From Candidatus Flemingiibacterium sp. (lineage in GTDB: Bacteria > Bacillota > Clostridia > Oscillospirales > CAG-272), in assembly GCA_045636265.1 (NCBI GenBank), contig JAZTXD010000078.1, positions 66,967-130,966 on the forward strand: a stretch of 64,000 bases of DNA, in the 5' to 3' direction. A program made the translations under genes and the position numbers. The notes under the pieces are model-generated. The model made no database searches. It saw nothing but the letters and a program-made list of their open reading frames with translations, and was not told the origin of the DNA. Positions 10,392-50,459 of the stretch are shown piece after piece; the stretch's first letter is position 1; each line of letters starts with the position of its first letter.

Positions 10392-10437
10392 AATTATTAT
10401 ACCGCAGCATCAGTCCAAAAAAACGGACACATTTAGA

Positions 10438-10466
10438 TTGACATATCCGTTTTGGCGTGGTATAAT
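10438..10466 (+). promoter_or_regulatory. consensus sigma-A promoter TTGACA-17-TATAAT
   Basis: Read directly from the sequence, 30 nt upstream of the ARH start. Confidence 0.65.
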
Positions 10467-10498
10467 TAATATAATAAATCACATCATCGGAGGTGCCT

Positions 10499-11506: not shown

Positions 11507-11519
11507 AGGAGAACACAAA

Positions 11520-16893: not shown

Positions 16894-17928
16894 ATGCTAA
16901 CCTACACATATATTTCAAAAGGAAAATTCGGCTTGGTTGAGAAACCAAAGCCTACACTTCTGCACAAACGTGATGCAATAGTCCGTGTTACACTCGCCAG
17001 CATCTGCTCCAGCGACCTCCACATCAAGCACGGCAACGTGCCGAGAGCGGTGGAGGGAATCACAGTCGGTCACGAGATGGTCGGTATCGTGGAGGAGGTC
17101 GGCTCTGCGGTGACGAACGTAAAGCCAGGCGACAGAGTTACGGTGAATGTGGAAACCTTCTGCGGCGAGTGCTTCTTCTGCAAGAAGGGATTTGTCAACA
17201 ACTGCACCGACACGAACGGTGGCTGGGCGCTTGGTTGCCGTATTGACGGCGGTCAAGCGGAGTACGTTCGCGTGCCTTTTGCGGATCAGGGGCTTAATAA
17301 GATTCCCGATACTGTGACCGACAGACAAGCTCTGCTCGTTGGCGACGTTCTTGCCACGGGATATTGGGCAGCAAAGATTTCGGAAATTACCGAGGACGAT
17401 ACCGTTCTTATCATCGGCGCAGGCCCCACGGGGATTTGTACGCTTCTTTGCGTGATGCTGGAGAATCCCAAGCGCATTATCGTGTGCGAGAAGGACGAGA
17501 ACCGCATAAAATTTGTGAATGAACATTATCCCGATGTGGTGACGGTTACGCCTGAAGAATGCCTTGATTTCGTTCGCGAGAACAGCGATCACGGCGGCGC
17601 TGATGTAGTGCTTGAGGTTGCAGGTGCGAAGAACACCTTTGAGCTTGCATGGGTGTGCGCGCGACCGAATGCGATTGTGACGGTGGTGGCGCTTTACGAC
17701 AAGGCGCAGACTCTACCTCTGCCCGATATGTACGGCAAGAATCTGACCTTCAAGACCGGCGGCGTTGACGGTTGCGATTGCGAGAAAACGCTGAAGCTCA
17801 TCGCAGATGGCAAGCTCGATACCGCGCCCCTGATCACGCATACCTATCCACTTGCGAAGATCGATGAGGCATATGAGTTGTTTGAAAATAAGCGTGACGG
17901 AGTTATTAAGGTTGCGGTGGAGTGTTGA
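16894..17928 (+). CDS. zinc-dependent alcohol dehydrogenase (MDR family)
   Basis: GHEMVG catalytic-zinc motif, CGECFFCKKG...C structural-zinc motif, GAGPTG Rossmann motif. Confidence 0.85.
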   Translation: MLTYTYISKGKFGLVEKPKPTLLHKRDAIVRVTLASICSSDLHIKHGNVPRAVEGITVGHEMVGIVEEVGSAVTNVKPGDRVTVNVETFCGECFFCKKGFVNNCTDTNGGWALGCRIDGGQAEYVRVPFADQGLNKIPDTVTDRQALLVGDVLATGYWAAKISEITEDDTVLIIGAGPTGICTLLCVMLENPKRIIVCEKDENRIKFVNEHYPDVVTVTPEECLDFVRENSDHGGADVVLEVAGAKNTFELAWVCARPNAIVTVVALYDKAQTLPLPDMYGKNLTFKTGGVDGCDCEKTLKLIADGKLDTAPLITHTYPLAKIDEAYELFENKRDGVIKVAVEC

Positions 17929-17971
17929 TAATTGTTCTGCCGTAAACAAAGAAAAGGCGCAATAAAAGAAA

Positions 17972-18010
17972 GCCGCAGAATTCAAAAATGAGTTCTGCGA
18001 CTTTCATTTT
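17972..18010. terminator. bidirectional terminator between adh (+) and the Ubl operon (-)
   Basis: CGCAGAA/TTCTGCG stem with T-runs on both strands. Confidence 0.6.
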
Positions 18011-18024
18011 TAGATTTACTGCAT

Positions 18025-19188
18025 TTAATCTAAGCTCGGGATGATAAGATTTTGACCGATATATATCTTATTTACATCGGAAATGCCGTTTAGAGCCATT
18101 ATTATCCTGTAGTTTGATAGGTAGTCCAAGCCGTTCTTGATGCAAATTGAAGACAAAGAGTCTCCTGCTTCGACGGTATACATGATGAAGTCAATACTGT
18201 TTTCACTTTGAGAAGGCATATCGGTGCTTGAATTATCCTGTTGTTGTTCGATATAACTTTTTAATTCAGTTAGCAGAATCTCTTGGTTTTCCAATTCGAT
18301 CTCATGATTTTCCAATTTGCTCAATAGATCTGCAGCCGTAGTTTTATCTGAACTATCAAGAATTCCATCAATAAAATAACTTTGTAAAGTTGTTATTTCA
18401 GCACCCTGTCTTTCAATTATATCTCTTTGTGCATCTAATGCTTCATTAAAGTCTGAAACAATCTCATTTTGTTTATCAATACGTTCCTGATAGTCTTTAT
18501 ATAATGAAATCAAGGAAATCCCCATAATTAGCGATATGACACTTAATATAGATACAACAGAAATTAGCGCCTTATTTGAGTTCCGCTTTGGCTGGACTAT
18601 CTCTTTTTTGATTTGTTCAATCTTAATTGGTTTGCCCACATCGTCATAGACATAGTACCCTTTGAGTTTTTCAATTTTTCCGTTTTTCCATTGGAAGAAT
18701 CCACGAATATTTTGAATCGGGTCAATTACATAGGCAATCTGGAATGGAAGATTAAAGAAATTCTCTTGGATAAACATGTCGTAATTTGACAAGAAAATTC
18801 CGTAGTTTGGATGCGTATGCTGCCAACCGATTATCTTCTTGTCCGGATACAAACGCTCGTGTTCCGAATGAATGTAGTCCCATGTCTCATGGGTAAAAGT
18901 AAGGGTGGAGGCAGAGGCGTCCGTGTATTTGGCTTCAACAAAGTTAGAGATTATCACATTTGTTTTTCCGAGCTCTTGACAGTAATCACCGAGGAGGATA
19001 CTGCCAAGTTCTTTGCTTGTGTCTGAAGCTGACAATTTTTCAAGTGCCTTGTAAATATCCTGTTTGATATATACCTTCACATCATCATTCTCAATTTCTC
19101 CGAAAGTCAAGAAATTCATAGGAAGTTGAACACTGCCAGTATCTTCTGTTTTTTCTTCTCCAAATTCTATTTCGAAATTCCTATCCAC
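18025..19188 (-). CDS. membrane-anchored JAB/JAMM (MPN+) metallopeptidase with extracytoplasmic coiled coil and C-terminal LysM domain
   Basis: IIGWQHTHPNYGIFLSNYD (HxH-x7-S-x2-D), one TM (ALISVVSILSVISLIMGISLISL), LysM YTVEAGDSLSSICIKNG...IYIGQNLIIP. GTG start 7 nt after GGAGG. Confidence 0.85.
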   Translation of the reverse strand: MDRNFEIEFGEEKTEDTGSVQLPMNFLTFGEIENDDVKVYIKQDIYKALEKLSASDTSKELGSILLGDYCQELGKTNVIISNFVEAKYTDASASTLTFTHETWDYIHSEHERLYPDKKIIGWQHTHPNYGIFLSNYDMFIQENFFNLPFQIAYVIDPIQNIRGFFQWKNGKIEKLKGYYVYDDVGKPIKIEQIKKEIVQPKRNSNKALISVVSILSVISLIMGISLISLYKDYQERIDKQNEIVSDFNEALDAQRDIIERQGAEITTLQSYFIDGILDSSDKTTAADLLSKLENHEIELENQEILLTELKSYIEQQQDNSSTDMPSQSENSIDFIMYTVEAGDSLSSICIKNGLDYLSNYRIIMALNGISDVNKIYIGQNLIIPSLD

Positions 19189-19200
19189 TATATTACCTCC

Positions 19201-20097
19201 TTATACAAACAGTATCGCAGTTAACAATGCATATCCAATAAGCGTAAGAACAGTAGCAGTAGTATTTACACCGCAATTTTTCAGAATAAACTGCGTTTTA
19301 TACGGCTCGCTCATGGTTTTAGCTTGATTGGCTTTGTTTTCAAGGAATTTCATATAAATATCGTTTCCAAAAACGCCAAGGACAATATACCCTGCAAACA
19401 AGAGCAACGAAAGAAAAACGGAACCAATTAGTGATAGCAAAAACGCCACTCCAAGAAGACCCGCACCATAACCATACATTTTTCGGTATATCATCCAATA
19501 AGGCGTAACCAAAAAAGCTGCCCAGTTCCACGATGTATTCTTGTTGTTTGATTTTAATTCTCGAAATTTTGGGATATAGTATTCCGCCTTAATTCCGATA
19601 AGCTGTTGAACATCATAATCAATGACGGTGCTTTGCTGTGATTGATAGCTATTATACCCATTAGAGTTATAATTGTTTGACGAATCAACATAGGAATAAA
19701 GATTTGTGCTTGCAGGATTTACTCGTGTATAAGCTATGGCCTGATGCTCTTGTTCAAAGCCCGTTGTAAGCCTATTGCCACACTTAGAACAAAACGAAGA
19801 AGAAGCATTGCTTTGTGCTCCGCATTTCGTGCAGTAAACCACACTGGATGGCGTATCATTTCTCCTTACGTCATCATAATTCATGTGGTTTGTGGTAACA
19901 GATGTAATAGTATCATCTGCAGACTTTATTGTACCAAGGCAGCCGAAAGTAGTACAGCCTTGATTTTCAACCCAACAATCTTTGTGGTGTGGCATATCGC
20001 ACTCGCTACAAACAACTATCGCATCATTAGACTTAAATTCGGTTTTGCAGAAAGGACAAATCTTGCCGGTATAATCATTCACCGATATTTCCTCCAT
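19201..20097 (-). CDS. RING/PHD-type (C4HC3) zinc-finger + zinc-ribbon protein with C-terminal multi-TM DUF2628-like domain (E3-like, paralog 3)
   Basis: CPFC-x12-CSEC-x3-HH-x2-C-x6-C-x4-C, then CTKCG-x10-CSKCG, then NWAAFLVTPYWMIYRKMYGYG. ATG 20097 is preceded by GGAGG. The track's longer ORF to 20313 is the alternate frame of the neighbour's repeat. Confidence 0.8.
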   Translation of the reverse strand: MEEISVNDYTGKICPFCKTEFKSNDAIVVCSECDMPHHKDCWVENQGCTTFGCLGTIKSADDTITSVTTNHMNYDDVRRNDTPSSVVYCTKCGAQSNASSSFCSKCGNRLTTGFEQEHQAIAYTRVNPASTNLYSYVDSSNNYNSNGYNSYQSQQSTVIDYDVQQLIGIKAEYYIPKFRELKSNNKNTSWNWAAFLVTPYWMIYRKMYGYGAGLLGVAFLLSLIGSVFLSLLLFAGYIVLGVFGNDIYMKFLENKANQAKTMSEPYKTQFILKNCGVNTTATVLTLIGYALLTAILFV

Positions 20098-21217
20098 CTT
20101 CGTTTGGTTCTTGGAGTGCATCATCTGTTGAAGCATTTGTTGAGTCATCTGTTGAAACATCTGCCGAGTCATCTGTCGAAGCGTCTGCCGAGTCATCTGT
20201 CGAAGCATCTGCTGAGTCATCTGTTGAAGCATCTGCTGAGTCATCCGTTGACTCGTCAGTTGCATCATCGTCAGAAGTGCTATTGTCAGAAGTGCTATTG
20301 TCAGAAGAATCATCTATTGTTTCGCCACCCGGTATAGTTGGCTCAGATTCTGGTTTAACAAAAATTCCCGCCTGGCTCAAAATGTCACTTAAATCTTCAA
20401 TTTGGCTGTTCAGTCCTTCGATTTCGGATGTTTGGGAAGAAATAAGCTGATGCATATATGCAAGACTTTGGTTTGCAGAGTCAACAAGTGTTCGCTGTTG
20501 GCTTTCAATTTTTTCAAGTTTGTTATTCGTTGAAATGTTGGAGAAAATCAAAAATACAACTGCAACGGAAAGGATAGCGAGTAGGATATTTTTTCCACTA
20601 AAAATTGTTGTATCTTCTTTTTGAACTACTTCATCATTCTCCACATCTACATCAATGTTTACACCGGTTTTATCATAAATGTAAAATCCTTTACACTTTT
20701 CGATTTTTCCGTTAATCCAGAAATAGAATCCCTCAATATTCTGGATTGGGTCAACTACGTAAGCAACTTGATGGTCCTCGTTAAAGAAATTTTGATGAAT
20801 AAATCTATCATATTCAGACAGAAAAATACCGAAGTCCGGATGCGTATGAATCCAACCTACAATTTTTTTGCCTTTATGCTTTTTTTCGATTTCTTTATGT
20901 ACATGCTCCCATGTTTCATGGGTGAACTTCAAAGTGGTGGGGGTTGAATCACAATGTTTAGCTTCAACAAAACCGCTAATTACAATATTAGTTTTTCCAA
21001 ATTCTTCAATTACCGAACCAACAAGCATACCGCCACTTTCGTTGGTAGTTTTATTCTCGGTAAAGTTATGAATCTCTTTGTACGCCTTTTGCGAAATATA
21101 TATGTTTTTGTTTTCTTCTACACGCTCGCCAATAGGGAGAATGTTCTGGGGCAGTACGTTCTCCGGCATTTCTGTTGCAATATTCTTTTTTATTTTGTTT
21201 TTTGCTTTCTTAGCCAT
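20075..21217 (-). CDS. membrane-anchored JAB/JAMM metallopeptidase with coiled coil and acidic STDDSADA-repeat tail
   Basis: ESGGMLVG...IVGWIHTHPDFGIFLSEYD, one TM, 8-aa tandem repeats at the C-terminus. ATG 21217 follows GGGAG. Confidence 0.85.
   Translation of the reverse strand: MAKKAKNKIKKNIATEMPENVLPQNILPIGERVEENKNIYISQKAYKEIHNFTENKTTNESGGMLVGSVIEEFGKTNIVISGFVEAKHCDSTPTTLKFTHETWEHVHKEIEKKHKGKKIVGWIHTHPDFGIFLSEYDRFIHQNFFNEDHQVAYVVDPIQNIEGFYFWINGKIEKCKGFYIYDKTGVNIDVDVENDEVVQKEDTTIFSGKNILLAILSVAVVFLIFSNISTNNKLEKIESQQRTLVDSANQSLAYMHQLISSQTSEIEGLNSQIEDLSDILSQAGIFVKPESEPTIPGGETIDDSSDNSTSDNSTSDDDATDESTDDSADASTDDSADASTDDSADASTDDSADVSTDDSTNASTDDALQEPNEDGGNIGE
20121..20300. repeat. coding tandem repeat: 6 x 24 nt (20121-20264) then 2 x 15 nt (20271-20300)
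   Basis: Units TCATCTGTTGAAGCATCTGCTGAG and variants, read directly from the sequence. Confidence 0.9.
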
Positions 21218-21222
21218 CTTTC

Positions 21223-22116
21223 TTACTCCCATACATCAATATCGAAATCCGTTCTTTCCCTCGGATCATATTGTAATGTAATATTTTTCTTTTTTTGATA
21301 TATTAACAAAACAGCAAACACGATATTTCCAATTAAAGATACTCCTGCAATGAAGAACGCAACATAAGTAACCATAGGAAGCTGCTCGTTATCGTAGTAA
21401 TCAGTTTTGTTTTCTTCGTTTTCATTTTCTGCCGTATAAGGCAGAGTTACTTCTGGCACTTCGATGTTTTGCAAAACATTTCCGTTTGTGTTTAACTCAA
21501 TTCCAAGAGATATAAGATAACTGCAAATCCTTGTTATCGGAATTGCCAGACCAATCCCTTCACTATCAAACATTTTTAATGTATTCATTCCAAGAACTTC
21601 GCCAGCATCATTAAGCAAGGGGCCGCCGCTATTACCCTCATTGATAGGGGCATCAATTTGAATATAAGAACGTTTTCCGATTATTCTCTCCTTAGCGGAA
21701 ACGCCACCTTTGGTAAGGGTATAGGCCATGCCCTTGGGGGCACCTATAGCATAAATATCATCACCAGTTTTCATTGTTGAAAGATCAGCAACCGTCAAAA
21801 AAGGAAAACTGACATCATTCACAACCAAAACAGCTATATCTTCATCCTCATTTATACCAAGAACAGATGCACCATACTCAGTACCTCCATAAGTGACGAC
21901 AGAGATACGTTTAGTGTTTTCAATAACGTGTGCGTTAGTTACTATGCAGTTTTCACCGATAGCAAACCCGCTGCCCATAGAATTCCCAGAGTATATGACG
22001 AAAACTGATTCATAAGCGTTTTCGGCTTCAAAGCCTATTGCACTCACGGATAAAGCGGAGGCGAATACTACCGCCACCACAATCATCAAAGAGAGTAATC
22101 CTCTGATTGGTTTCAC
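21223..22116 (-). CDS. exported trypsin-like (S1/HtrA-type) serine protease with C-terminal membrane anchor
   Basis: Signal peptide ...ALSVSA. Catalytic triad contexts TNAHV, DIAVL and GNSGGPL. C-terminal TM. GTG start after AGGAGG. Confidence 0.85.
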   Translation of the reverse strand: MKPIRGLLSLMIVVAVVFASALSVSAIGFEAENAYESVFVIYSGNSMGSGFAIGENCIVTNAHVIENTKRISVVTYGGTEYGASVLGINEDEDIAVLVVNDVSFPFLTVADLSTMKTGDDIYAIGAPKGMAYTLTKGGVSAKERIIGKRSYIQIDAPINEGNSGGPLLNDAGEVLGMNTLKMFDSEGIGLAIPITRICSYLISLGIELNTNGNVLQNIEVPEVTLPYTAENENEENKTDYYDNEQLPMVTYVAFFIAGVSLIGNIVFAVLLIYQKKKNITLQYDPRERTDFDIDVWE

Positions 22117-22140
22117 GATATTACTCGCCTCCTAATCCAT

Positions 22141-24030
22141 TTATTTAGTATTAAACACCAGCACAGAGTTGCCTATTGCAATTGCATCACCTTGACGCAA
22201 TACATGGCGTACTGTTTTCTGACCATTTACGATGGTGCCCATAGGAGTACCGCAGTCGGTCAAAACATACTTGCTACCTTCAAGCTTGATGTCGCAGTGA
22301 TGCGGACCGACAAGCTTATCTTTGAACAGTACAATGGTGTTTTTGCCGTTGTTACCAATGCTCGTGGTTCCTGCAAATACAAGATACTCTTTACCTTCAA
22401 ATTCACCACGGATAACTTTAAGCCATGCAGCTTTTGCAAACTGTTCAAGCAGACCGACACCTACGCCAATCAAAATGCCCATCACACCAATGGCAACACC
22501 TCTGGCAACGACGTCATTGGGGATAACATCGCAAACATAGTTAAACAGGAAACCGCCGATAAAGGCTCCCACCAAACCACCAAGAGCGCAGAAAAGTATA
22601 CGCTTCTTTTCCGGCTTTATTAAGCCGGCCGATACGCCAATACCGAGACCCATGATAGCCCAGCCCAAGCCGCGAATGAGTGCAGCTGTGAAATCGGCAG
22701 GATCATCTCCCAAAAGTTCAGCGTACATCCACTGTGCCAAGTAACCACTTATAAATCCGATAACAAGTGATACACAAGCGCCGATCAGTGCATATTTGAT
22801 TGCCTTTTCTTTAGAACCATAGTAGATTCCTTCACCAATTCCAAGGAACAATCCAATAAAGAGTGCAATAGCAGCAGACCAAAGAGCTGTACTTGTTCTT
22901 GTAACAATCGCCAGCGCATCCCAAAGGTCATCCTCATCTTCATCGTAAGTGTTCTCATACACTTCATAGAGAGCGTCATTTGCTTTATCATCATACGCTG
23001 AATAATCTTCAAGATAATCTATTGCTTTGTCTGATGCTCCATTTGAGAGCCAATCAGTGAAAGTGTTGCTTGCCTCGGCGTTTTTGTTTTCTTTTTTGCA
23101 ATACGCTTCAAATTCGTCGTATGCTTTCTCCCATGCAGAATCGGCTTTTGCTGTATATTCGAGATACTCAACAAATTCTGAACGTCCACAAAGTCTGGCG
23201 GCAGTCACGTCACTTGTAAGATTAGTTTCTGTTAACTCAGAAACACCAAATCCAATAAATGAACCTATTAAAGCCCAAAGTAAACCTTTGACTAAAATAG
23301 TCTTGAAATTCAGCTTGTTACTCTTTACTGTTCCACCGTGAGATACCGTTTGCATTCTCTGAGCAGTGGGGACAAACTCTATCCCGGCAAGTTCTTCAGC
23401 GGTAATCTCGAAGTCGTTCTCGTCAGTTTTTTCCAACACAGCAACAGGAGCAACGGTGGTATCGGGAGCAATATCTGTAGGAACTTCGGGGGCAGTAGTC
23501 GTATCTTCCATTACTGAGCCATCATCCCCAAACAAGTCAATCTCAACAACTTCTTTTGAAGAAGCATAGTCAGCGATATATAGGTCTATATTCCCAACCG
23601 GGAACAAGTGCTTGTTTTCCATAGCCCATTGAGCTGCGTCCGCAGACAGAGGGCTATAAGAGTTCCATGACTTGTACTGAATCATATCACCTATATTTAT
23701 GATAATATCGCTCAAAGATTCTCCCGCACCCCAGATATCTCCAATGCAAATTTGTCCATCACGGAAGTTTGGATGCCAAATGGGTGTAAGAATTTTACAG
23801 ATAGGTTTATAACGAGGATAATCAGCATGGAGAGTTATTTCAATTTCATGCCTACCTAAAGTTTCAATTCTACCGTCTTCTAAGAGGTAAATACCGTTCA
23901 CAAAATATGTAACGTGATATTTTTCCGGCAGCTCATCACCAATGGGCGTAACGATAATATTTTTGTGACCAGTAAAGTCTTTTTTTACTTGCTCATAGTC
24001 AGAGGCAAGTCGTCTCATTCTTGCAGTCAT
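22141..24030 (-). CDS. E2 (UBC-fold) ubiquitin-conjugating-enzyme-like domain fused to a polytopic membrane region and a C-terminal FHA-like domain
   Basis: N-terminus RLASDYEQVKKDF...YPRYKPICKILTPIWHPNFRDGQICIGDIW...SPLSADAAQW (HPN 86-88, Cys95). About 6 predicted TM helices. C-terminus IGNNGKNTIVL...HHCDI...YVLTDCGTPMGTIVNGQK...GDAIAIGNSVLVF. Confidence 0.85.
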   Translation of the reverse strand: MTARMRRLASDYEQVKKDFTGHKNIIVTPIGDELPEKYHVTYFVNGIYLLEDGRIETLGRHEIEITLHADYPRYKPICKILTPIWHPNFRDGQICIGDIWGAGESLSDIIINIGDMIQYKSWNSYSPLSADAAQWAMENKHLFPVGNIDLYIADYASSKEVVEIDLFGDDGSVMEDTTTAPEVPTDIAPDTTVAPVAVLEKTDENDFEITAEELAGIEFVPTAQRMQTVSHGGTVKSNKLNFKTILVKGLLWALIGSFIGFGVSELTETNLTSDVTAARLCGRSEFVEYLEYTAKADSAWEKAYDEFEAYCKKENKNAEASNTFTDWLSNGASDKAIDYLEDYSAYDDKANDALYEVYENTYDEDEDDLWDALAIVTRTSTALWSAAIALFIGLFLGIGEGIYYGSKEKAIKYALIGACVSLVIGFISGYLAQWMYAELLGDDPADFTAALIRGLGWAIMGLGIGVSAGLIKPEKKRILFCALGGLVGAFIGGFLFNYVCDVIPNDVVARGVAIGVMGILIGVGVGLLEQFAKAAWLKVIRGEFEGKEYLVFAGTTSIGNNGKNTIVLFKDKLVGPHHCDIKLEGSKYVLTDCGTPMGTIVNGQKTVRHVLRQGDAIAIGNSVLVFNTK

Positions 24031-24047
24031 ACTATGTCTAATCCTCC

Positions 24048-24521
24048 TTAATCATTTCCTTTAGTAGGCTTTACGACATTGATTTTAAGCGCAGATATAC
24101 AAGCAATGAGAAGTCCCACGCAAATATAAATTCCCTTACTAATCTGAGCAGCCGCAATTTTGCCACCTCTGAGACATGCCTCAATAATGTAATTATAGGC
24201 ATAGCCACCAACATATTCAGTCATAGTGTATGAACTGATGTAATCGGATGGGGCACTGATACCAATACCAACAATTAACATAATAATTCCAACAGCTAAA
24301 CAGCCGACCGGAATAACATTGCTCATTATAGTTTTTTTGACATCAATTTTATCCTTCTGTCCGTTTTTTAGTTTGATGTTCATGTTGTACTGCTGGATGG
24401 GAGTAGGTTCAGATGCCGCCTGTGTATTGCATCTCTCGCCACATTGGGGACAAAAAGATGCATTTATATCAAGTTCTGTTCCGCATTTGAAACAGAACTT
24501 TTTGTTTGCTTCAGTATTCAT
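24048..24521 (-). CDS. zinc-ribbon membrane protein
   Basis: CFKCG-x10-CPQCG followed by 2-3 TM segments. Confidence 0.65.
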   Translation of the reverse strand: MNTEANKKFCFKCGTELDINASFCPQCGERCNTQAASEPTPIQQYNMNIKLKNGQKDKIDVKKTIMSNVIPVGCLAVGIIMLIVGIGISAPSDYISSYTMTEYVGGYAYNYIIEACLRGGKIAAAQISKGIYICVGLLIACISALKINVVKPTKGND

Positions 24522-24538
24522 AATAATTCTCCTTCAAT

Positions 24539-25726
24539 TTACATCCCTTCAAAAACTTCTGCTTCATCTGATGTAAATTCATAATATGTAGTATTCGCAC
24601 CAACCCTGCCACCAATAATGTGTAACACTGGAATACCAATATCAAAAGGCGTTTTATCAAGGAAATCTTCTTCGCCTTTAATGGAATGAACACTATCAAA
24701 AGTCATTTGATTGCCACATTTTGGACAAGTCAGCATATTGCCTTTGAGCTTATGAACCGGCGTGAATAAATCCTTACATTCGCCGCAAGAGCATTTAGCA
24801 GTCGTAGCAATGTCCCTATCAAAATCGAGAACAGCTTTTTCTCCGAGTTCATTTCGGATTTCTGCTAAAATTTCTTTGAGAGTGATTGTTTTAACAGACC
24901 AGGGCTTTTCTACAATCTTTTCGTATGTATCATGGCTCATGCAGTCCTCTTTACGTTGATACTCCACGACATAGGAATCATGTGTTAAACCATTAAATAC
25001 ATATCCCTTGCCTGCAAGAGTAGGAAGATTTCTGTCTGCATGGAGCAACTTCAGCATTTCTTGCACTTGGATGCCTGCGATAATCGATGAAGAAGTTGGA
25101 GTGGTAGGAATTTTACCCTCCGCCATCTGCTCGTGGGTAAGCAAAGCGCAGGATTTGCGCTTGTTAATCAGCATCCAGTCCGTTTCGGTCATGGTGCATT
25201 CATAGCAAGCCCCCTGCCCGGGGATGAAGACGCGGGCAAAGCCGTTAAGCGCTTCGATAGCGCCATCAATCCAAGGTCGATCCACCTTGTAGCATGACTG
25301 GTTAATGGAAAGACGTGCCTCACGGTTATCCAAACCACCCAAAACCACATTCATTCTGCGGAACACACCCAAGCCAACATCATCAATAATGTTAGCAATA
25401 AACGCCTTAGCCTTGACATCAGGATTCATTTCCTTAGCCCGCTCGGCAGCAACTTCCGCCTTATAACGGCCCACATCACGCGCTCTGTAAAGAACTGATC
25501 GAGTGAGGTTGGTGCTTTCAATGGCATCCATATCGTATACAAGGATTCTACCGATGCCCAACAAAGCCAGATTCTTAATCAATTCATTTCCGATAGCACC
25601 AGCGCCTACGACCATGATAGTTGCATTTTTTAGCCGCTCCTGATCCCACCAGGGAATCAGCCGAAGACGAGCGTAGCGGTCTTCTTCAAAGTCAGAGCTT
25701 TTCAGCTCAAGGGTATCATTCTCCAT
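24539..25726 (-). CDS. E1-like adenylyltransferase (ThiF/MoeB/UBA family)
   Basis: VVGAGAIGNE nucleotide loop, NLTRS, GLDNREAR, CYEC and CSCGEC...CPKCG zinc motifs, candidate crossover-loop Cys in KRKSCALL. Confidence 0.9.
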   Translation of the reverse strand: MENDTLELKSSDFEEDRYARLRLIPWWDQERLKNATIMVVGAGAIGNELIKNLALLGIGRILVYDMDAIESTNLTRSVLYRARDVGRYKAEVAAERAKEMNPDVKAKAFIANIIDDVGLGVFRRMNVVLGGLDNREARLSINQSCYKVDRPWIDGAIEALNGFARVFIPGQGACYECTMTETDWMLINKRKSCALLTHEQMAEGKIPTTPTSSSIIAGIQVQEMLKLLHADRNLPTLAGKGYVFNGLTHDSYVVEYQRKEDCMSHDTYEKIVEKPWSVKTITLKEILAEIRNELGEKAVLDFDRDIATTAKCSCGECKDLFTPVHKLKGNMLTCPKCGNQMTFDSVHSIKGEEDFLDKTPFDIGIPVLHIIGGRVGANTTYYEFTSDEAEVFEGM

Positions 25727-26001
25727 TACATTGCACCTGCTGTAATTTCAGGCTGAAGACGAAGAACATCACCGTCTTTGATACCAGCTTCGGCAAGTGT
25801 TTGAGCTTCAAGCAGCTGCCTGCCGGTGACCTTATGGATAAACTTATAGCTAATGGGGTTGCCATCGGGACCGACAGAGGGGAGTTTAATTTTCTCCACA
25901 AGCTTTACCATGATAATGCCGCACTTAATGTCGTCCGGCAGACCAACTTTCTGTTCTTTGTTGCCAGTAGCATCCACAATAATTACATTAACTTTTGCCA
26001 T
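25726..26001 (-). CDS. ubiquitin-like beta-grasp protein (Ubl)
   Basis: 91 aa. ...TLAEAGIKDGDVLRLQPEITAGAM* is the classic Ubl C-terminal pattern. Its stop overlaps the E1 start (ATGTAATGG). Confidence 0.75.
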   Translation of the reverse strand: MAKVNVIIVDATGNKEQKVGLPDDIKCGIIMVKLVEKIKLPSVGPDGNPISYKFIHKVTGRQLLEAQTLAEAGIKDGDVLRLQPEITAGAM

Positions 26002-26031
26002 TTTAGTATTCTCCTTATTATTTTAGTTGCA

Positions 26032-26907
26032 TTAATCTAATAAGTTTTCGAGTGCTCTGTAGCAGGCGAGAAACTCATCAGTAATTTCGTTGTTATTATC
26101 ACTATATGAGTTGTAGTTGCCGGAAGGGTCTGTTGCAAGGCTGTAAAATTCTGTATACACGTTATACAAATCTTTTACTGCGTCACAGAGGTCTTCAATC
26201 TCATCTAAATCTTCTTCAGAAATATGTTCGGGAACTTTTTTGAGTTCAGAGTATAAGTCCTTCATTTGAGTGTCATACTCTCCAGCCTGGTCGATTTCAT
26301 CAGACTTATCAATCAACGCAAGCAAAATTGCAGTATCGATATCAGCTCCGTGCTTGTCTTCCCAAATGTTCTCATACCAATACTTCTGGACAGTATCGGC
26401 AATGTCTTCAAGATTAGCCCCGGCAGTTATAGACAAGGTAAGGAAATCTTCGACATTTTCAATGTACTCTTTCCTTGCTTCCTCAGCCTTCTTTTCACCT
26501 ATTGTTTTAGAAATGAAGAAACCGAGAGCAGCAACGACTACCAAAACAACTGCAATTACAATGGGGAGAGCTTTCGATTTTGCCTTTTTCTTTTCAATCC
26601 CCGTATTGAACTGGCTGATAGCAGTGTTGACATTAGTATCTACGGCCATGCCAACTTTTTGTCCACACTTAGAACAGAACTCCTGTCCGGCACCCAATGT
26701 AGCTCCGCAATTATTGCAGGCAGCAATAGGATTAGTTCCTTTTTCTTCGTAATGCTGCTCAGAGCAACCGAAAGTAGTGCACCCCTTGTTTTCTTCCCAA
26801 CACCCATCGTGGTGGGGAATGTTGCAAGCAGGGCATACTTTCACACCGTCTCCTTCTTTAATCTCCGTTTTGCAAAACGGACAAGTTTTTCCCACATAGT
26901 TTTCCAT
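26032..26907 (-). CDS. RING/PHD-type (C4HC3) zinc-finger + zinc-ribbon single-pass membrane protein (E3-like, paralog 2)
   Basis: CPFC-x12-CPAC-x3-HH-x2-C-x6-C-x4-C, CNNCG-x10-CSKCG, TM ALPIVIAVVLVVVAALGFFI, acidic helical C-terminal domain. Confidence 0.8.
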   Translation of the reverse strand: MENYVGKTCPFCKTEIKEGDGVKVCPACNIPHHDGCWEENKGCTTFGCSEQHYEEKGTNPIAACNNCGATLGAGQEFCSKCGQKVGMAVDTNVNTAISQFNTGIEKKKAKSKALPIVIAVVLVVVAALGFFISKTIGEKKAEEARKEYIENVEDFLTLSITAGANLEDIADTVQKYWYENIWEDKHGADIDTAILLALIDKSDEIDQAGEYDTQMKDLYSELKKVPEHISEEDLDEIEDLCDAVKDLYNVYTEFYSLATDPSGNYNSYSDNNNEITDEFLACYRALENLLD

Positions 26908-26932
26908 ATTATCAAACCTCCATAATTAATAA

Positions 26933-28153
26933 TTAGTCCCATTTATATTCAGAAACTTTACTTGTAATTTTCGAGTTCTGCTTCTTTACATTAGAAATAG
27001 CATTGTCTACACTTTTTTCCTTGGTATCTTTACTCGAATAATACGTTGAATAAGCAACGGAAGGCCGCTTATTTATGTAGTTGTGATAGTCTTCGTATTT
27101 TTTATACAGCTCATTTAATGAAGAATATAATTTCTTATATTCTTCAGGTGCGTGCTTCAGTTCCAGCATAATTAATTCCAACGCACTCATATTTTGGTTT
27201 GCTATAGAAAGAGAATTTTCGAAAGCTTGCGCAGTATCAGCATCTACTACATAAGTATAGCCGTTTGCATACCGTGACCAATAATAATAGACCATATAAG
27301 AAGAACCGCTGTAAAGCCTGGACATAGCAGTTGAAATATCAGCATCATAAAGATCGGTATACAAAAGCGTGTTGTATACACAACCGCCAAGCACTTTATC
27401 AAGGTCATATCCTCGCGAAATCAGAGCATATGCAATCTGAGCATCCGATAAATAATCGTTTTTTATCTCTGCGATCTTGCTTTCGCTGTCCGAAAAGCCT
27501 TCAAGTGAAAGAAGAATCTCAATTGCATCAAAATGATTGTTGTTTTCGAACAGCTTAATTGCATCATCATATTTTTCTTGTTTTATGGCATTTTCGCAAT
27601 TTATGATTTGTTCTTCGCTGTCCTTAAAACCTCCTAATTCCTTGAATAAACTAATCGCACTTTCGTAGTCGCCGTTGGTGTACATTTCCTTTGCTTCTTG
27701 ATATTTAGCATTCGGAGCAAAATATAAGAACCAAGAAACAACAATACCGGCAATAACAGCACACACGATAATCGGCAACCATATAGTCAAAAACCTTTTT
27801 TTCTTTTTCTTGGCATTTGTAATATTGCGATTGAATTCTTCTATCGAGCGGTTTGCCTCATGTGTAACCGCAGTGTTGTTGCCGCAAGATGGACAGAACA
27901 AATCTCCGTCATTAAATATTGCTCCGCAGATTGTACATTTCTTTTCTGTCATTATCGCGTTTTGCTCAACGCCTGTTGCAGGTTCGCCTTCCAAGGTGTT
28001 ATGCTGTGAACAGTTTGGCGAAGAACAGCCTTTGTTTTCTTCCCAACAACCGCTGTGATGGGGAATGTTGCAAGCAGGGCAGACTTTTACATTATCTTCC
28101 TCTTTGATTTCCGTTTTGCAAAACGGACAAATTTTCCCAATGTAGTTTCCCAT
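26933..28153 (-). CDS. RING/PHD-type (C4HC3) zinc-finger + zinc-ribbon single-pass membrane protein with TPR-like repeats (E3-like, paralog 1)
   Basis: Same Cys/His spacing. CTICG-x10-CPSCG. One TM. Repeats ...GDYESAISLFKELGGFKDSEE... and ...HFDAIEILLSLEGFSDSES... Confidence 0.8.
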   Translation of the reverse strand: MGNYIGKICPFCKTEIKEEDNVKVCPACNIPHHSGCWEENKGCSSPNCSQHNTLEGEPATGVEQNAIMTEKKCTICGAIFNDGDLFCPSCGNNTAVTHEANRSIEEFNRNITNAKKKKKRFLTIWLPIIVCAVIAGIVVSWFLYFAPNAKYQEAKEMYTNGDYESAISLFKELGGFKDSEEQIINCENAIKQEKYDDAIKLFENNNHFDAIEILLSLEGFSDSESKIAEIKNDYLSDAQIAYALISRGYDLDKVLGGCVYNTLLYTDLYDADISTAMSRLYSGSSYMVYYYWSRYANGYTYVVDADTAQAFENSLSIANQNMSALELIMLELKHAPEEYKKLYSSLNELYKKYEDYHNYINKRPSVAYSTYYSSKDTKEKSVDNAISNVKKQNSKITSKVSEYKWD

Positions 28154-28224
28154 GGAAATCCTCCTAAAGACAAACTTGTTTTATTGCTTAAGTCGCCCTG
28201 CGACATTATAACAATAGGTAGTGA

Positions 28225-28914
28225 TTACTTTAAATCATGCGGCAGACACATATCACACGGTTCATACTCGCCGTTTTCAAGCTCTTCAATCGTCATCCGA
28301 CGAATATTGTTTTTTCCCTTTACAAAAATGCATTTTTCTTCGTGATACTTATTTCCGGCTGAAGTCAAATAGTATTCGCCATAATAGTGGTGTTCCTTTT
28401 GAATGGCGTTAAATACTGTTAAACCGATTGCAGATACTATAAGCAGAGCGACTACAATGCTGACAACCTTTCTATGGCTCTTGATAGTATTGAGAGCTTT
28501 ACGACCAATACCGTTGCTTAAAATATAATGGGTAAATTCGTTCGCTTCATATTCCTCAACAACATCTTTTCCTATAACGGGATAGGAGGAAAGATGTCCA
28601 CAGTATATGTGCCCCTCCTCGTGAGCCAACACCAAGCGTTTTTCATCATCAGAAAGGTCTTCGTGCAAAAAAACGAGTCGCCGTTGCTTATCAGCAAAGG
28701 TAAAGCCTTTTGATTTGTCTATAGCTTCTTCAATACCCAATGCTTCAATTAACGTGGTTACGTTTTCATCATTGAATATATGGTTATATTCAATGATGGT
28801 ATATCCTTGCAACTTGATGATTCGACATAAATCTTCAAGTGTCACCTCATTCAAGTTATATTCGATGAGAAACGCTCTCGCTTTTGCTTTAATGTCATTC
28901 TTCATTGATATCAT
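28225..28914 (-). CDS. ImmA/IrrE-family zinc metallopeptidase with TM segment and C-terminal Cys-rich tail
   Basis: HEXXH motif in LVLAHEEGHIYCGH, TM VVSIVVALLIVSAIGLTVF, tail KYHEEKC...PCDMC. Confidence 0.8.
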   Translation of the reverse strand: MISMKNDIKAKARAFLIEYNLNEVTLEDLCRIIKLQGYTIIEYNHIFNDENVTTLIEALGIEEAIDKSKGFTFADKQRRLVFLHEDLSDDEKRLVLAHEEGHIYCGHLSSYPVIGKDVVEEYEANEFTHYILSNGIGRKALNTIKSHRKVVSIVVALLIVSAIGLTVFNAIQKEHHYYGEYYLTSAGNKYHEEKCIFVKGKNNIRRMTIEELENGEYEPCDMCLPHDLK

Positions 28915-29452
28915 TTTTTTGGATAGACCTTAATGCTTTCATAGCTTCAACATCCTTGGAAGAAGGTATAGCATTCAACAAGCTGATTCCGCCAAAAGAT
29001 TTTACGACGGCTTCACTGGGGAGTTGTGTGCACCTCGCATACTCTACCATAATCATTGAATTGATTGCTTGTTTGGCTTTCTCATCCAGGTATTCAAGAA
29101 TATCCTCTGCTTGATTTCCCAAAATTGAGCTGAGACCGAAACTGGAATAGTCCATACCATCATTAAACCGAATAACTAACTCCTTGGGAAATAAGGAAAG
29201 CATACGCAGCATTTTATGTGTTTTTTGATTGTGATCAAAAAACAACACTAAAGAAAGATATGTGCTCCACGACATTCTTCTGACTTTACGTTCAATCGCA
29301 CTGTAAGTTTGGCGAGAAACGCCTATAAGATTTGCCAATTCTTCTTGTGATATTTCCGCGTGTGTTCTTAGTGCAGGCAAGTTTGGCGTAAGTGTTGCAA
29401 TAAACTCGTCCTTTTCTGCATCAGTCAGCAACCATTTTGATACAGATTCCAT
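28895..29452 (-). CDS. XRE-family HTH regulator (first gene of the Ubl operon)
   Basis: ISQEELANLIGVSRQTYSAIERKVRRMSWSTY. Confidence 0.8.
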   Translation of the reverse strand: MESVSKWLLTDAEKDEFIATLTPNLPALRTHAEISQEELANLIGVSRQTYSAIERKVRRMSWSTYLSLVLFFDHNQKTHKMLRMLSLFPKELVIRFNDGMDYSSFGLSSILGNQAEDILEYLDEKAKQAINSMIMVEYARCTQLPSEAVVKSFGGISLLNAIPSSKDVEAMKALRSIQKNDINEE

Positions 29453-29540
29453 CTAAAGACTCCCTTCCTCATAGTTTAGTTTATTGATTTTATAAAACAT
29501 TTAAATTGATAACAAAGTAAGATTCACAACTATATATATG

Positions 29541-29569
29541 ATTATACACCATGTTGTCAGATTTGTCAA
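29541..29569 (-). promoter_or_regulatory. perfect consensus sigma-A promoter TTGACA-17-TATAAT for the Ubl operon, with a TTGACAA-ATC-TGACAA direct half-site repeat over the -35
   Basis: The reverse strand reads TTGACAaatctgacaacatggtgTATAAT, ~90 nt upstream of the XRE start. Confidence 0.65.
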
Positions 29570-29689
29570 TATGCTATCAAAAAAAGAATAAAAATGTCGC
29601 AAAAACGTCGTAGATTTTACATTACAATCTGAATTGCCATCGTTTTTTATTTTAACCGTAACATCTTCTATCAACATACCTCTAAATTT

Positions 29690-30098
29690 TTACGCGGGGC
29701 AATTCCATATTTTTCTATAAAAAAAGTGAATCATTTTAGAATCGGGCGAATCAATGTACAATTTTAACTTAATGGTATTTGTAAAACGCCCAAAAGCGTA
29801 AAACACAAAATAGGATTTTAGTCCCACGATCTCGCCGCAGCGACAGCCGGTGAACAACACAACTTCGATCACAGCACGGATAGTGTAGCGTCTCACTTTC
29901 AAGCGCTGTGAGCGTCCGATGTCATCCTCGATATATTCGAGCTTGTACGCGGAGCGGAGCACAAGTCGTATACCGCTTGACTGTGCTTGCGGCGAGATTT
30001 CCTTCGCGTCCGTCAAATCTCTTTTTCGCGGTGGAGAGATACTGAATAAATTGCTGAATATGGGAGATACCGTTTGGTCTTAAAATAATGCTTGCCAT
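29690..30098 (-). pseudogene. tyrosine recombinase remnant (frameshifted and truncated)
   Basis: MASIILRPNG... then the SAM-like segment ...LAASTVKRY..., then in another frame ...VVLFTGCRCGEIVGLK. No catalytic C-terminal half. Confidence 0.65.
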
Positions 30099-30278
30099 AG
30101 ATTTCCCTCCTTGATGGCTAAGATTATGCACCTCAGAAATGAACGAATCGTTATTTCTTCCCAAGGGTAGAACCGATAGCCTCTACCATTTGCAGACTGC
30201 GACATTTGAAACCTATGTACTAAACTATGTACTGGCGTCTACCATCGGCAAATTCAGTGTAAGGAGCAAAACAAAAAA

Positions 30279-30298
30279 TCCGCACCTCAAAGTGCGGA
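30279..30298 (-). terminator. terminator after the serine recombinase gene
   Basis: TCCGCAC/GTGCGGA stem followed by a T-run on the reverse strand. Confidence 0.65.
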
Positions 30299-30303
30299 AA
30301 AAG

Positions 30304-31836
30304 TCAGTGAATACAAAGAAAAATCGGGAATCGTAAGATTCCCGATCCTGGTCTAACACCTTTAGTTATATCCGAACTTTTTAGATCTGAAAACAGAACT
30401 GTTTTTGCATCACGTTTGTAGTTGAATGTGAAAAGAAGACGGTCGTTATAAACGAATATGGCATTGACGAAGGTATCGATCAATCGTTTGCGCTGTTCCA
30501 ACACTGTTATGTCGTATTCGCGCATACGCTCGAACCAAAATCTCACTTGTTCCTCGGTAAGTAGTGGACGCTTCATCTTTTCTTTAATGATCTCTGTTTC
30601 AATGTTGCGGTGCTTTTCTTCAAGCGCATCCAATCGTTTCTTGGTCATAGGGGTAATGATACCTTGTTCAATGGCATTCAGCATATTGTTGATTGCCTTT
30701 TTCGCTTCGGCAAGCTCGTGTTCAAGATGGGGAATAACAGTGTTTTCTTTTTGCTGAAACTCCATAAACATATGAACAATATCGTCAATCAGGTTATCAT
30801 CGTGTAGTGCCTTTCTTATTTCCTCCACGACAATATCCTCGATCCAAGCCTTGCGTAGAGGTTTCATATGACAACCTGTATGTTTTTTTGCGCTGACACA
30901 CTTGTAATAATGATACACCTGCTTGGTTGCACTTGTGCCGGATTCTCCCACCATTAAGGACTTACATTCACCACAGAACAATTTTGTAGTGAGAATATAA
31001 TCGTCTTCTGCTTTGTGACGAGCGGGAGCTTTTTTGTTTTTAGCGATTTTCTCTTGAACTCGGTCAAACAAATCTTTTGGAACGATAGCAGGGATACCAT
31101 CGGGGACAACGATATCACGATAAATGTATTCGCCTATATAACGTCGATTTTTTAAAAGACTTGCCACGTTGTCTATACTGATACGACCGCCGCGCGTATT
31201 CTTGACTTCGTGCTGATTCAGTATAGCGGCAATCTCACTCATTGTCATACCTTCATCATAGTTTTGATATGCTTCTAAAACAAAAGGTGCGGTAAGCGGA
31301 TCGATATGATAATTTTGTTCCTTGTCGGTCGTATATCCGATAGGAAGTGTGCCGCCGTTATATTTGCATTTCAGCGCGTTCTCGGTGTGTCCGCGAATAA
31401 CCTTTTCGGATAGATCGGCAGAGTAGTATTCCGCCATACCTTCAAGTACGGATTCCAAAAGAATACCTTCAGAGCCTTCGGAGATAGATTCTGTCGCTGA
31501 CATAACCTTAACGCCATTGCGCTTTAGAACCGCTTTGTAGTTTGCGGAGTCGTAACGGTTACGTGCAAAACGGTCGAGTTTCCATACGATGGCTAAATCG
31601 AAGTTGCGCTTTGCGCTGTCCTTAATCATCTTTTGAAAATCGGGGCGTTTATCTGTCTTAGCAGAGAAGGCACGGTCAATATACTCACCAACTACCGAGA
31701 TATCATTCTTTCGCGCAAAGGCATAACACTCGCGAAGCTGACCTTCAATAGACTCTTCACGCTGATTTTCACTTGAATAACGCGCATATATCACGGCTCG
31801 CATAGAACTCTCGTTGTTTATTTTCTTCTTTGTCAT
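30304..31836 (-). CDS. large serine recombinase
   Basis: AVIYARYSSENQ catalytic-Ser motif, resolvase domain, recombinase domain, Cys-rich zinc ribbon CGEC...YYKC, C-terminal coiled coil. Confidence 0.9.
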   Translation of the reverse strand: MTKKKINNESSMRAVIYARYSSENQREESIEGQLRECYAFARKNDISVVGEYIDRAFSAKTDKRPDFQKMIKDSAKRNFDLAIVWKLDRFARNRYDSANYKAVLKRNGVKVMSATESISEGSEGILLESVLEGMAEYYSADLSEKVIRGHTENALKCKYNGGTLPIGYTTDKEQNYHIDPLTAPFVLEAYQNYDEGMTMSEIAAILNQHEVKNTRGGRISIDNVASLLKNRRYIGEYIYRDIVVPDGIPAIVPKDLFDRVQEKIAKNKKAPARHKAEDDYILTTKLFCGECKSLMVGESGTSATKQVYHYYKCVSAKKHTGCHMKPLRKAWIEDIVVEEIRKALHDDNLIDDIVHMFMEFQQKENTVIPHLEHELAEAKKAINNMLNAIEQGIITPMTKKRLDALEEKHRNIETEIIKEKMKRPLLTEEQVRFWFERMREYDITVLEQRKRLIDTFVNAIFVYNDRLLFTFNYKRDAKTVLFSDLKSSDITKGVRPGSGILRFPIFLCIH

Positions 31837-31901
31837 GATATCACATCCTTTCTGCCAAGAGTATAACAGATACTAAATTTTCTTGCAAATGTGCGAGATA
31901 A

Positions 31902-32774: not shown

Positions 32775-32779
32775 TAGTT

Positions 32780-37503: not shown

Positions 37504-37520
37504 AATAAGGAGACGTTGAA

Positions 37521-50445: not shown

Positions 50446-50459
50446 AATATTTGGAATTG

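Follow-up and report, generated by a model that had tools for sequence, protein, structure and literature searches.

We analysed a 64,000-nucleotide stretch of the genome of Candidatus Flemingiibacterium sp. (assembly GCA_045636265.1, contig JAZTXD010000078.1, positions 66,967 to 130,966), referred to here as the window, in which twelve minus-strand genes encode a ubiquitin-like protein (Ubl), its predicted activating (E1) and conjugating (E2) enzymes, three RING-type proteins that could serve as ligases (E3), two JAB peptidases and further membrane or regulatory products. We consider it fairly probable that these genes form a membrane-embedded Ubl conjugation system on an integrative mobile island, conflict or defence being the most likely role. 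The conjugation chemistry itself, a thioester cascade from E1 through E2 and RING to JAB at the inner membrane face, is strongly suggested by the predicted domains and residues, each biochemical step being a prediction. A defence role, directed against phages or mobile elements and acting at the membrane, has slightly less than an even chance. To our knowledge, the experimentally characterised bacterial Ubl conjugation systems (type II CBASS, Bil and Bub) are all soluble and lack an E3. In the family described here, RING-type proteins are found in addition, and both the E2 and the deconjugating peptidases are anchored in the membrane.

The genes were examined with Pfam profiles, and all reported domain matches exceed the curated gathering score unless stated otherwise. 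Every family that a first-pass annotation of this DNA had named from the letters was recovered above its cut-off: Ubl, ThiF-type E1, UBC-type E2, FHA, RING-type, JAB, LysM, trypsin, XRE and ImmA. An NCBIfam search gave no family-level (equivalog) assignment. Residue conservation was assessed in alignments of 30-54 orthologues per protein, and the active-site residues and E1 motifs called conserved below reach the threshold of at least 95%. The 91-residue Ubl (25726-26001) is a YukD-type beta-grasp protein (YukD, 4e-12) that ends in ...LRLQPEITAG-AM; a sequence search with it against the Protein Data Bank (PDB) was uninformative. The E1 (24539-25726, 395 residues; ThiF, 1e-54) comprises an adenylation domain, a crossover loop with Cys194 and a C-terminal domain with a four-cysteine cluster, and its GAGAiGNE nucleotide loop, CxxC motif and Cys194 are conserved. 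Its best PDB sequence matches are eukaryotic, namely Uba1 (4e-31) followed by UBA7, UBA3 and SAE2, and the matches to ThiF (8e-19) and MoeB (7e-17) are weaker. The E2 protein (22141-24030, 629 residues) joins a UBC-fold domain with an HPN...Cys95 motif, about six transmembrane (TM) helices and an FHA domain (FHA, 2e-11). The UBC domain scored 35.3 bits with UQ_con against a cut-off of 27 (1e-8), its top UBC matches in the PDB are eukaryotic E2s, and its WHPNF...QICIGD motif, including Cys95, is conserved. As judged by sequence comparison, the E1 and E2 are nearer to eukaryotic E1s and E2s than to ThiF or MoeB.

Both JAB proteins carry an intact and conserved JAMM motif, E...HxHx7SxxD. JAB1 (20075-21217; JAB 6e-10, Prok-JAB 3e-6) consists of a JAMM peptidase domain, a TM helix, a coiled coil and an acidic-repeat ectodomain, and JAB2 (18025-19188, 387 residues; JAB 6e-6, LysM 3e-9) consists of a JAMM peptidase domain, a TM helix, a coiled coil and LysM. 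The FHA domain, which matches GarA, is a genuine but non-canonical member of its family. In the alignment with GarA, the residues that contact phosphothreonine are replaced (Arg by Asn, Ser by Gly and Asn by Met), and the replacements are conserved in the family. A canonical phosphothreonine-binding FHA was ruled out, as the contact residues Arg (GR), Ser (SxxH) and Asn (NG) are all missing.

The C-terminus of the Ubl has the features expected of a conjugated tag. The ...LRLQPEITAG sequence is conserved in all 52 Ubl orthologues and is followed by 0-9 residues or by a fusion partner. Ten of the 52 proteins end exactly at ...EITAG, 29 continue for 1-9 unrelated residues (AM in the window), and 13 run in frame, directly behind ...EITAG, into a membrane protein, which is a Zn-ribbon/2-TM protein in ten loci (L003, L006, L019, L022-L024, L055-L057 and L060) and a signal-anchored or lipoprotein-like protein in three (L020, L026 and L035). 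The window encodes a separate protein of the type fused to the Ubl in the ten related loci, a 157-residue Zn-ribbon protein with two TM helices (24048-24521; Zn_Ribbon_1, 1e-6). Ubiquitin precursors show the same pattern, which implies that the Ubl matures by endoproteolytic cleavage behind the glycine; the obvious candidates for this step are the JAB peptidases.

The tag is also more constrained than the partners with which it was compared. Amino-acid identity of the Ubl among orthologues is 87-99%, its median proportion of nonsynonymous differences (pN) is 0.048 and its pN/pS ratio is 0.057, compared with 0.16 for the E1, 0.25 for the E2-FHA protein and 0.32-0.44 for the JABs and the protease. 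As the synonymous differences (pS) are saturated in all genes (about 0.8), the identity of the Ubl reflects selection and not recent transfer, and the Ubl is under ubiquitin-like purifying selection. The tag thus resembles ubiquitin in three respects: it is near-invariant at saturated synonymous divergence, it has removable C-terminal tails and some of its forms are Zn-ribbon fusions.

Three proteins of the operon match Prok-RING_1: RING1 (26933-28153, 406 residues; 9e-15), RING2 (26032-26907, 291 residues; 8e-11) and RING3 (19201-20082; 1e-12, with DUF2628 at 1e-5). Each combines a C4HC3 domain with a Zn ribbon and membrane segments; RING1 has a TPR-like ectodomain, RING2 a four-helix-bundle ectodomain and RING3 several TM helices. 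The RING-type domain shows eight invariant C4HC3 ligands and a near-invariant Trp after the sixth. In a profile search of PDB sequences, the plant RING-H2 protein EL5 ranked first (6e-4), with the PHD fingers of Pygopus and MLL3 close behind and further RINGs after them. Two structures were modelled with AlphaFold (AF2). In the whole-chain model of RING2, with a pLDDT (predicted local distance difference test) score of 83, the ectodomain is a high-confidence four-helix bundle, which showed weak, non-significant Foldseek similarity to the ligand-binding domains of the chemoreceptors Tar and Tsr. Because this helical ectodomain dominated the Foldseek results for the whole chain, the RING domain was modelled alone (pLDDT 97). 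The top Foldseek matches of the latter model were RNF126, RNF13, RNF165, EL5 and RNF38, with PHD fingers interleaved; they include RING E3s bound to E2~Ub, and the RNF13 match is a membrane PA-TM-RING E3 in complex with E2~Ub. Probabilities were 0.9-0.99, and the E-values are a modest 0.03-0.3, in line with a domain of 50 residues. The models indicate that the fold is a RING/PHD-type binuclear cross-brace. The structural check proposed with the first-pass annotation gave RING E3s as the best matches, and the annotation's count of three RING-type proteins held; the E3 function is suggested by strict co-occurrence with E1, E2, Ubl and JAB, PHD fingers having scored about as well.

Hydropathy and flanking charge were used to predict membrane topology. 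TM segments were predicted in nine of the twelve products, only the XRE protein, the Ubl and the E1 being soluble. The RING, JAB, ImmA catalytic, E2 and FHA domains were predicted to be cytoplasmic, and the LysM, coiled coils, acidic repeats, TPR-like region, a 117-residue loop of the E2 protein and the protease domain to be extracytoplasmic. RING1, for example, has its TM helix at residues 121-139 with the N-terminus inside, and this N-in topology would place all RING, JAB and E2 domains on the same face of the membrane. The protease (21223-22116, 297 residues; Trypsin_2, 5e-29) is HtrA/DegS-like with a trypsin fold and no PDZ domain (NCBIfam degP/htrA, 1e-43). Its His, Asp and Ser triad is conserved, an N-terminal signal or TM segment and a C-terminal TM anchor are predicted, and owing to the signal peptide it is expected to act outside the cytoplasm. 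Conservation differs between the two sides of the membrane: identity to the window residue is 0.75-0.89 in cytoplasmic domains and 0.18-0.50 in extracytoplasmic parts. Within the E2-FHA protein, the values are 0.86 for the E2 domain, 0.89 for FHA and 0.37 for the outside loop. The earlier view that nearly all components are TM-anchored with extracytoplasmic modules is borne out by the nine TM proteins, the LysM domain and the exported protease, except for the TPR call in RING1, where the TPR/ANAPC3 matches fall below the Pfam cut-off. In seven related loci (L014, L020, L022, L024, L026, L053 and L059), extra open reading frames (ORFs) abut the system; they encode BspA-type leucine-rich-repeat proteins and Zn-ribbon-TM proteins whose ectodomains are TPR-like or DUF5780, which suggests that the complement of receptor-like membrane partners varies.

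The arrangement is not a chance one, as 63 species-representative genomes, all Clostridia, have the same gene order. The scan covered one genome per species with exact peptide patterns, so that 63 loci is a lower bound. The carriers belong to Oscillospiraceae, Acutalibacteraceae, Lachnospiraceae, Ruminococcaceae, Christensenellaceae and other families and are mostly gut or rumen assemblies; a few loci labelled as other taxa look like binning errors. At least two carriers are cultured, Massiliimalia massiliensis and Lachnospiraceae bacterium MC2017. The consensus order is (XRE-ImmA)-RING(s)-Ubl-E1-(Zn-ribbon TM)-E2/FHA-protease-JAB-RING-JAB. Among the 31 loci with enough flank to count as complete, Ubl, E1, E2-FHA, RING (one to three genes) and JAB (one or two genes) are present in all, the protease in 27, XRE in 14 and ImmA in 12. 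The linkage implied by describing the locus as a twelve-gene operon therefore stands for a five-component core, and twelve genes as the core do not, as fewer than half of the loci carry XRE and ImmA. A search of 1.84 billion cluster representatives returned 186 with E-values of at most 1e-30, and it placed the E2 domain and a 4TM-FHA module each in other architectures. The E2-FHA link recurs outside the family, as one 838-residue relative of the E2 domain (P0343) is fused to both FHA and a Ser/Thr protein kinase. Other E2 relatives, of 450-920 residues, have C-terminal regions of no recognised family.

The most compact version is a five-gene operon of Anoxynatronum sibiricum (L064, 8492-12033), which consists of Ubl, E1, E2, JAB-TM-LysM and RING-TM. 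Its Ubl ends in ...EITAG-S and its E2 is a soluble protein of 189 residues. Because they are kept in this minimal operon, a membrane-anchored RING and a peptidoglycan-binding JAB are core features.

The layout of the locus in the window is that of an operon. Twelve co-directional ORFs span 18025-29452, reproducing the coordinates of the first-pass annotation. XRE and ImmA overlap by 20 nt; the widest gap, 71 nt, separates ImmA from RING1, after which come gaps of 25 and 30 nt, a 1-nt overlap of Ubl and E1 (ATGA), gaps of 17, 17 and 24 nt, small overlaps or gaps, and a final gap of 12 nt. A sigma-70 consensus promoter, TTGACA-17-TATAAT (29569-29541, minus strand), lies 89 nt upstream of the XRE start and is the sole 12/12 match within 17600-30400. 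Since promoter-like matches overall are not enriched (30 observed, 33 expected), the promoter evidence comes from this one perfect, well-placed site. A candidate internal promoter-like site, TTTAAA-18-(TG)TATAAT (28205-28234, minus strand), is located directly after the ImmA stop and matches at 10/12 positions with an extended -10 TG. At the other end, a bidirectional intrinsic-terminator hairpin (17974-17999), with T-rich tails on both strands, separates JAB2 from a convergent ADH gene and closes the operon. Tight packing, direction and a consensus promoter ahead of the operon were thus seen as first described, and two gene starts were revised. The listed RING3 ORF (370 residues, up to 20313) is inflated by its first 70-odd codons, because a 24-nt tandem repeat that codes for part of JAB1 is read there in another frame. 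The likely RING3 start is GTG at 20082, with GGAGG 8 nt upstream, giving the N-terminus MNDYTGKICPFC, which parallels those of RING1 and RING2. For JAB1, whose listed ORF begins at 21232, the start is probably 21217. The tandem repeat itself (5.5 copies, 20121-20251) encodes the acidic TDDSADAS repeats of the JAB1 ectodomain, a possible length-variable surface region.

The first two genes form a putative regulatory pair. The XRE-family helix-turn-helix (HTH) repressor-like protein (28895-29452, 185 residues; HTH_3 1e-7, HTH_31) is followed by an ImmA/IrrE-type Zn metallopeptidase (28225-28914, 229 residues; Peptidase_M78, 6e-7) with a conserved HExxH motif (HEeGH), one TM helix at residues 150-168 and a cysteine-rich C-terminal tail. 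An XRE HTH protein with an adjacent M78 metallopeptidase in overlapping genes at the upstream end fits the regulator pairs ImmR/ImmA, DdrO/IrrE and CapH/CapP, and CapH/CapP-like regulators are known to precede defence operons, some of them ubiquitin-related (10.1101/2022.04.27.489752). In such pairs the peptidase has a C-terminal GAF domain and cleaves the repressor on stimulation by single-stranded DNA. ImmA of the window gave no GAF match and has the TM helix and cysteine-rich tail instead. This C-terminus (28225-28400), past the TM helix, contains a conserved YH...C...CxxC tail that, judged by eye, resembles an Ada-type Zn-binding motif. As the pair is optional in the family and often lies behind an integrase, it may be an ImmR/ImmA-type switch of the mobile element rather than part of the cascade core.

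The surroundings of the operon support an island. Its GC content is 0.37-0.43, compared with 0.44-0.50 in the left flank, and a large serine recombinase (30304-31836, minus strand; Resolvase, Recombinase, Zn_ribbon_recom) lies directly upstream. The minus-strand region 30304-33394 encodes this recombinase, a 290-residue protein without a recognised family and a LexA-like S24 repressor. A cluster resembling restriction-modification (RM) systems follows on the plus strand (33877-45978), with a 1208-residue SNF2 helicase-YAcAr/SLOG fusion, DUF4391, an N6/N4 DNA methyltransferase, several ORFs of unknown function and a 1036-residue ResIII helicase that ends in a restriction-endonuclease domain. 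The region 48158-52631 (plus strand) encodes a MobA/VirD2 relaxase and an AAA_14/DUF4143 ATPase. The recombinase, LexA-like repressor, relaxase and RM-like cluster suggest that the operon lies at the edge of an integrative mobilisable element, and the earlier description of an AT-rich island beside mobile and defence genes agrees with these data. In seven related loci, a tyrosine integrase precedes XRE or the first gene by about 100 nt. Elsewhere in the window, the region 8388-12500 contains two adjacent ADP-ribosylglycohydrolase-sized ORFs (10493-11506, profile-scanned, and 11487-12500) and, beside them on the opposite strand, a 667-residue HD_4-domain protein.

We propose the following mechanism. 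A JAB peptidase would remove the two-residue AM tail of the YukD-type Ubl and expose Gly89. The Uba-like E1 would then adenylate Gly89 and form a thioester, probably on crossover-loop Cys194, and the Ubl would be transferred to Cys95 of the UBC-fold E2, held in the membrane by its approximately six TM helices. The phospho-independent FHA domain may serve as a docking site for the Ubl or for a partner, much as YukD binds the FHA domains of YukB (PMC12637312). The three membrane-anchored C4HC3 proteins would act as E3-like adaptors that deliver E2~Ubl to targets on the cytoplasmic side of the membrane, and the two membrane-anchored JAMM peptidases would undo the modification. Variable ectodomains (LysM, the four-helix bundle, TPR-like repeats, the E2 loop and the tethered HtrA-like protease) could couple this activity to the state of the wall or envelope, and where XRE and ImmA are present, derepression in the style of ImmR/ImmA or CapH/CapP may operate. 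A complete eukaryote-style cascade of E1, E2, E3 and deubiquitinase had been proposed for the locus; profiles, conserved residues, two AlphaFold models and synteny agree on the set of components, and the E3 function is suggested by context.

We favour a defence role because of the mobility of the locus, its derepression switch and its variable surfaces, and because Bil, CBASS and Bub set a precedent. Several observations weigh against it or against parts of the cascade. No target or effector (nuclease, pore, AAA+ unfoldase or proteasome) is encoded in the operon, and the extreme conservation of the Ubl is unusual among defence components. PADLOC, run on ten products, returned domain-level matches to E1, JAB and trypsin-like proteins and no system, with no match for the Ubl or RING. 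The flanks of about 50 related loci, profiled crudely from ORFs rather than gene calls with two genes per side, are heterogeneous and mostly housekeeping, with integrases and occasional RM or Abi genes. The minimal operon stands amid housekeeping genes (pta/ack, PFOR and cstA, with glmM and glmS a few genes away), and its neighbourhood contains no integrase and no regulator pair. Furthermore, Cys194 is probably the catalytic cysteine of the E1, an assignment made by position and conservation alone, RING and PHD are inseparable by sequence or Foldseek E-values, and literature searches found, within the library covered, no experimental work or biochemistry on bacterial RING-containing Ubl operons. 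A defence or trans-membrane signalling device, as the locus had first been described, is thus not demonstrated, considering the PADLOC result, the mostly housekeeping flanks and the setting of the minimal version. It is possible, if on balance doubtful, that the locus is a trans-envelope Ubl signalling machine and the first bacterial RING-E3 cascade, in which a diversifying set of receptor-like RING and JAB proteins senses what happens at the peptidoglycan or cell surface, for example phage attack or wall damage. If so, these proteins would switch Ubl conjugation at the inner face, with a near-invariant, ubiquitin-like tag produced from fusion precursors, and the system would be a bacterial counterpart of eukaryotic membrane E3 receptors and of endoplasmic-reticulum-associated degradation (ERAD), with a bearing on the origin of ubiquitin signalling.

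A serious rival, since the minimal system looks chromosomal and housekeeping-like, is that the machinery serves envelope homeostasis or membrane-protein quality control in an ERAD-like manner instead of immunity. The Ubl would then be placed on host membrane or wall-synthesis proteins according to the state of peptidoglycan or envelope, and the membrane RING proteins and membrane E2 would have roles like those of Hrd1/Doa10 and Ubc6. The JAB-TM-LysM and RING-TM core kept near glmM and glmS even in the minimal system, the HtrA/DegS-like protease and the housekeeping-like purifying selection on the Ubl all fit this view, as does the lack of a PADLOC system. It also agrees with searches of collections of phages, viruses and plasmids: IMG/VR yielded no match to E2-FHA, E1 or Ubl as queries, and tblastn with E2-FHA gave none in INPHARED phages or PLSDB plasmids. 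We nevertheless regard it as rather unlikely in view of the patchy occurrence across families with adjacent integrases or recombinases, the absence of an encoded unfoldase or degradation machinery, the highly variable ectodomains and a derepression switch typical of mobile elements and defence operons (10.1101/2022.04.27.489752). A selfish function, proposed for mobile E1/E2/JAB operons by Aravind and co-workers (PMC3417536), appears improbable here. The operon would act as a protein-level restriction-modification or addiction module that stabilises the island, conjugation destabilising host proteins and the JABs rescuing them. This would account for predicted ligase and opposing peptidase activities in one mobile operon beside an integrase or recombinase, but it leaves the variable sensor-like extracytoplasmic domains and the membrane anchoring unexplained, and the minimal version is on no obvious mobile element. 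Slightly less probable still is a non-covalent Ubl that stabilises FHA membrane complexes, as YukD/EsaB does in type VIIb secretion, with the RING-like proteins as Zn-finger membrane partners or substrates instead of E3s. The Ubl does belong to the YukD family, its relatives are labelled EsaB/YukD at NCBI, the FHA domains of YukB are bound by YukD (PMC12637312), and both the loss of phosphothreonine-binding residues in the FHA domain and the likeness of RING to PHD would be in keeping with such a role. However, no EssC or WXG100 genes occur in the operon or its conserved neighbourhood, there is strict co-conservation of E1, E2 and two JABs, all with their active sites intact, and a C-terminal Gly that never varies, together with tails or fusions that can be removed, is a sign of activation chemistry.

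Prokaryotic Ubl-E1-E2-RING-JAB operons were reportedly predicted by Burroughs, Iyer and Aravind in Mol Biosyst in 2011, in work said to be the source of the Pfam family Prok-RING_1. The features of that type are all present in the window: a YukD-like Ubl with a C-terminal Gly, a Uba-like E1 with its loop and Cys, an HPN-Cys UBC E2, the Prok-RING_1 cross-brace, a JAMM-bearing JAB, gene linkage and a sporadic, mobile distribution. The minimal five-gene form fits the type as reportedly described in 2011, whereas the form in the window is expanded, with three RINGs bearing different ectodomains and two JABs, and further adds the E2-about 6 TM-FHA protein, the tethered HtrA-like protease, the Zn-ribbon TM protein and XRE/ImmA. 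The prediction is cited in later articles (PMC3417536, PMC10557695, PMC7159879), and RING-containing bacterial operons have been called rare and uncharacterised (PMC10557695, PMC11601603). In archaea, the operon of Caldiarchaeum subterraneum for Ub, E1, E2, a small-RING E3 and Rpn11 has been reconstituted (PMC5654768, PMC6043591). It shares separate genes for Ubl, E1, E2, a RING-type E3 and a JAMM enzyme with the window, and its JAMM enzyme processes the Ubl precursor, a step that is predicted here. However, the archaeal proteins are soluble, with a single RING and a single JAMM enzyme, and the tag is a true ubiquitin homologue ending in Gly-Gly, whereas the window, from a bacterial host, encodes a YukD-type Ubl ending in Ala-Gly and mostly membrane-anchored partners with ectodomains.

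Bacterial systems share parts of this set. Bil (BilABCD; PMC10557695) likewise encodes its Ubl, E1, E2 and JAB separately, uses thioester chemistry (predicted for the window) and lies on mobile islands, but comprises four soluble products without a RING or E3. Membership in Bil was rejected, as PADLOC gave weak, partial matches to BilD (1.5e-7) and BilC (3e-3) but not to BilA or BilB, and the Ubl and E2 had no match. With type II CBASS Cap2/Cap3 and 6A-MBL, the locus has in common an E1-type adenylation domain and a JAB, and CapH/CapP-like regulators lie upstream of some of these systems. The PADLOC E1-E2 matches cover only residues 10-190 of the E1, the adenylation domain; no CD-NTase or effector is present among the twelve genes, and E1 and E2 are separate, which excludes type II CBASS. 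Bub (6E/DUF6527) also combines a Ubl, E1, E2 and a peptidase, and its Ubl can be a fusion pre-protein cleaved by a JAB domain; it works through Tyr and Ser oxyester intermediates and a DUF6527 Ser-His protease (PMC11601596). The invariant Cys in the E1 loop and E2, the lack of a DUF6527 match and the exported trypsin-fold protease exclude the window from Bub, and the N-terminal signal or TM segment and C-terminal TM anchor of that protease likewise exclude it as a Bub-like cytoplasmic deconjugase. In the type VIIb secretion system, a YukD-family beta-grasp protein likewise occurs beside a membrane protein with a phospho-independent FHA domain, YukD binding the FHA domains of YukB (PMC12637312). 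There YukD is not conjugated, whereas E1, E2, RING and JAB are present in the window. Type VIIb secretion was rejected, as no EssC/YukB ATPase, EssB or WXG100 protein was found among the operon products or conserved neighbours.

Eukaryotic membrane ligases include the ERAD enzymes Hrd1 and Doa10, with the TM-anchored Ubc6, and the PA-TM-RING protein RNF13, and eukaryotic ubiquitin is also made as fusion precursors with Zn-ribbon ribosomal proteins. The window shares with these ligases a TM-anchored E2 and TM-anchored RINGs with domains on the lumenal or extracellular side, and with ubiquitin an almost invariant tag and precursors fused to Zn-ribbon proteins. No Cdc48 or proteasome partner, as in ERAD, is encoded, and we regard the likeness to eukaryotic membrane ligases as an analogy of architecture. 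Clostridia of the human and animal gut commonly carry the family, and its compact five-gene version suits reconstitution. Characterisation would tell whether RING-dependent E3 catalysis exists in bacteria, show the membrane targets of bacterial tagging and help to model how the eukaryotic E1-E2-E3 cascade arose. The novelty first claimed for the locus holds in that we found no experimental work in bacteria, but it was overstated, as the prediction of this operon type dates from 2011, many gut Clostridia carry it and reconstitution of an archaeal E1/E2/RING/Rpn11 operon has been published. The locus is not categorically new; it is an expanded, membrane-embedded variant of an operon type predicted in silico.

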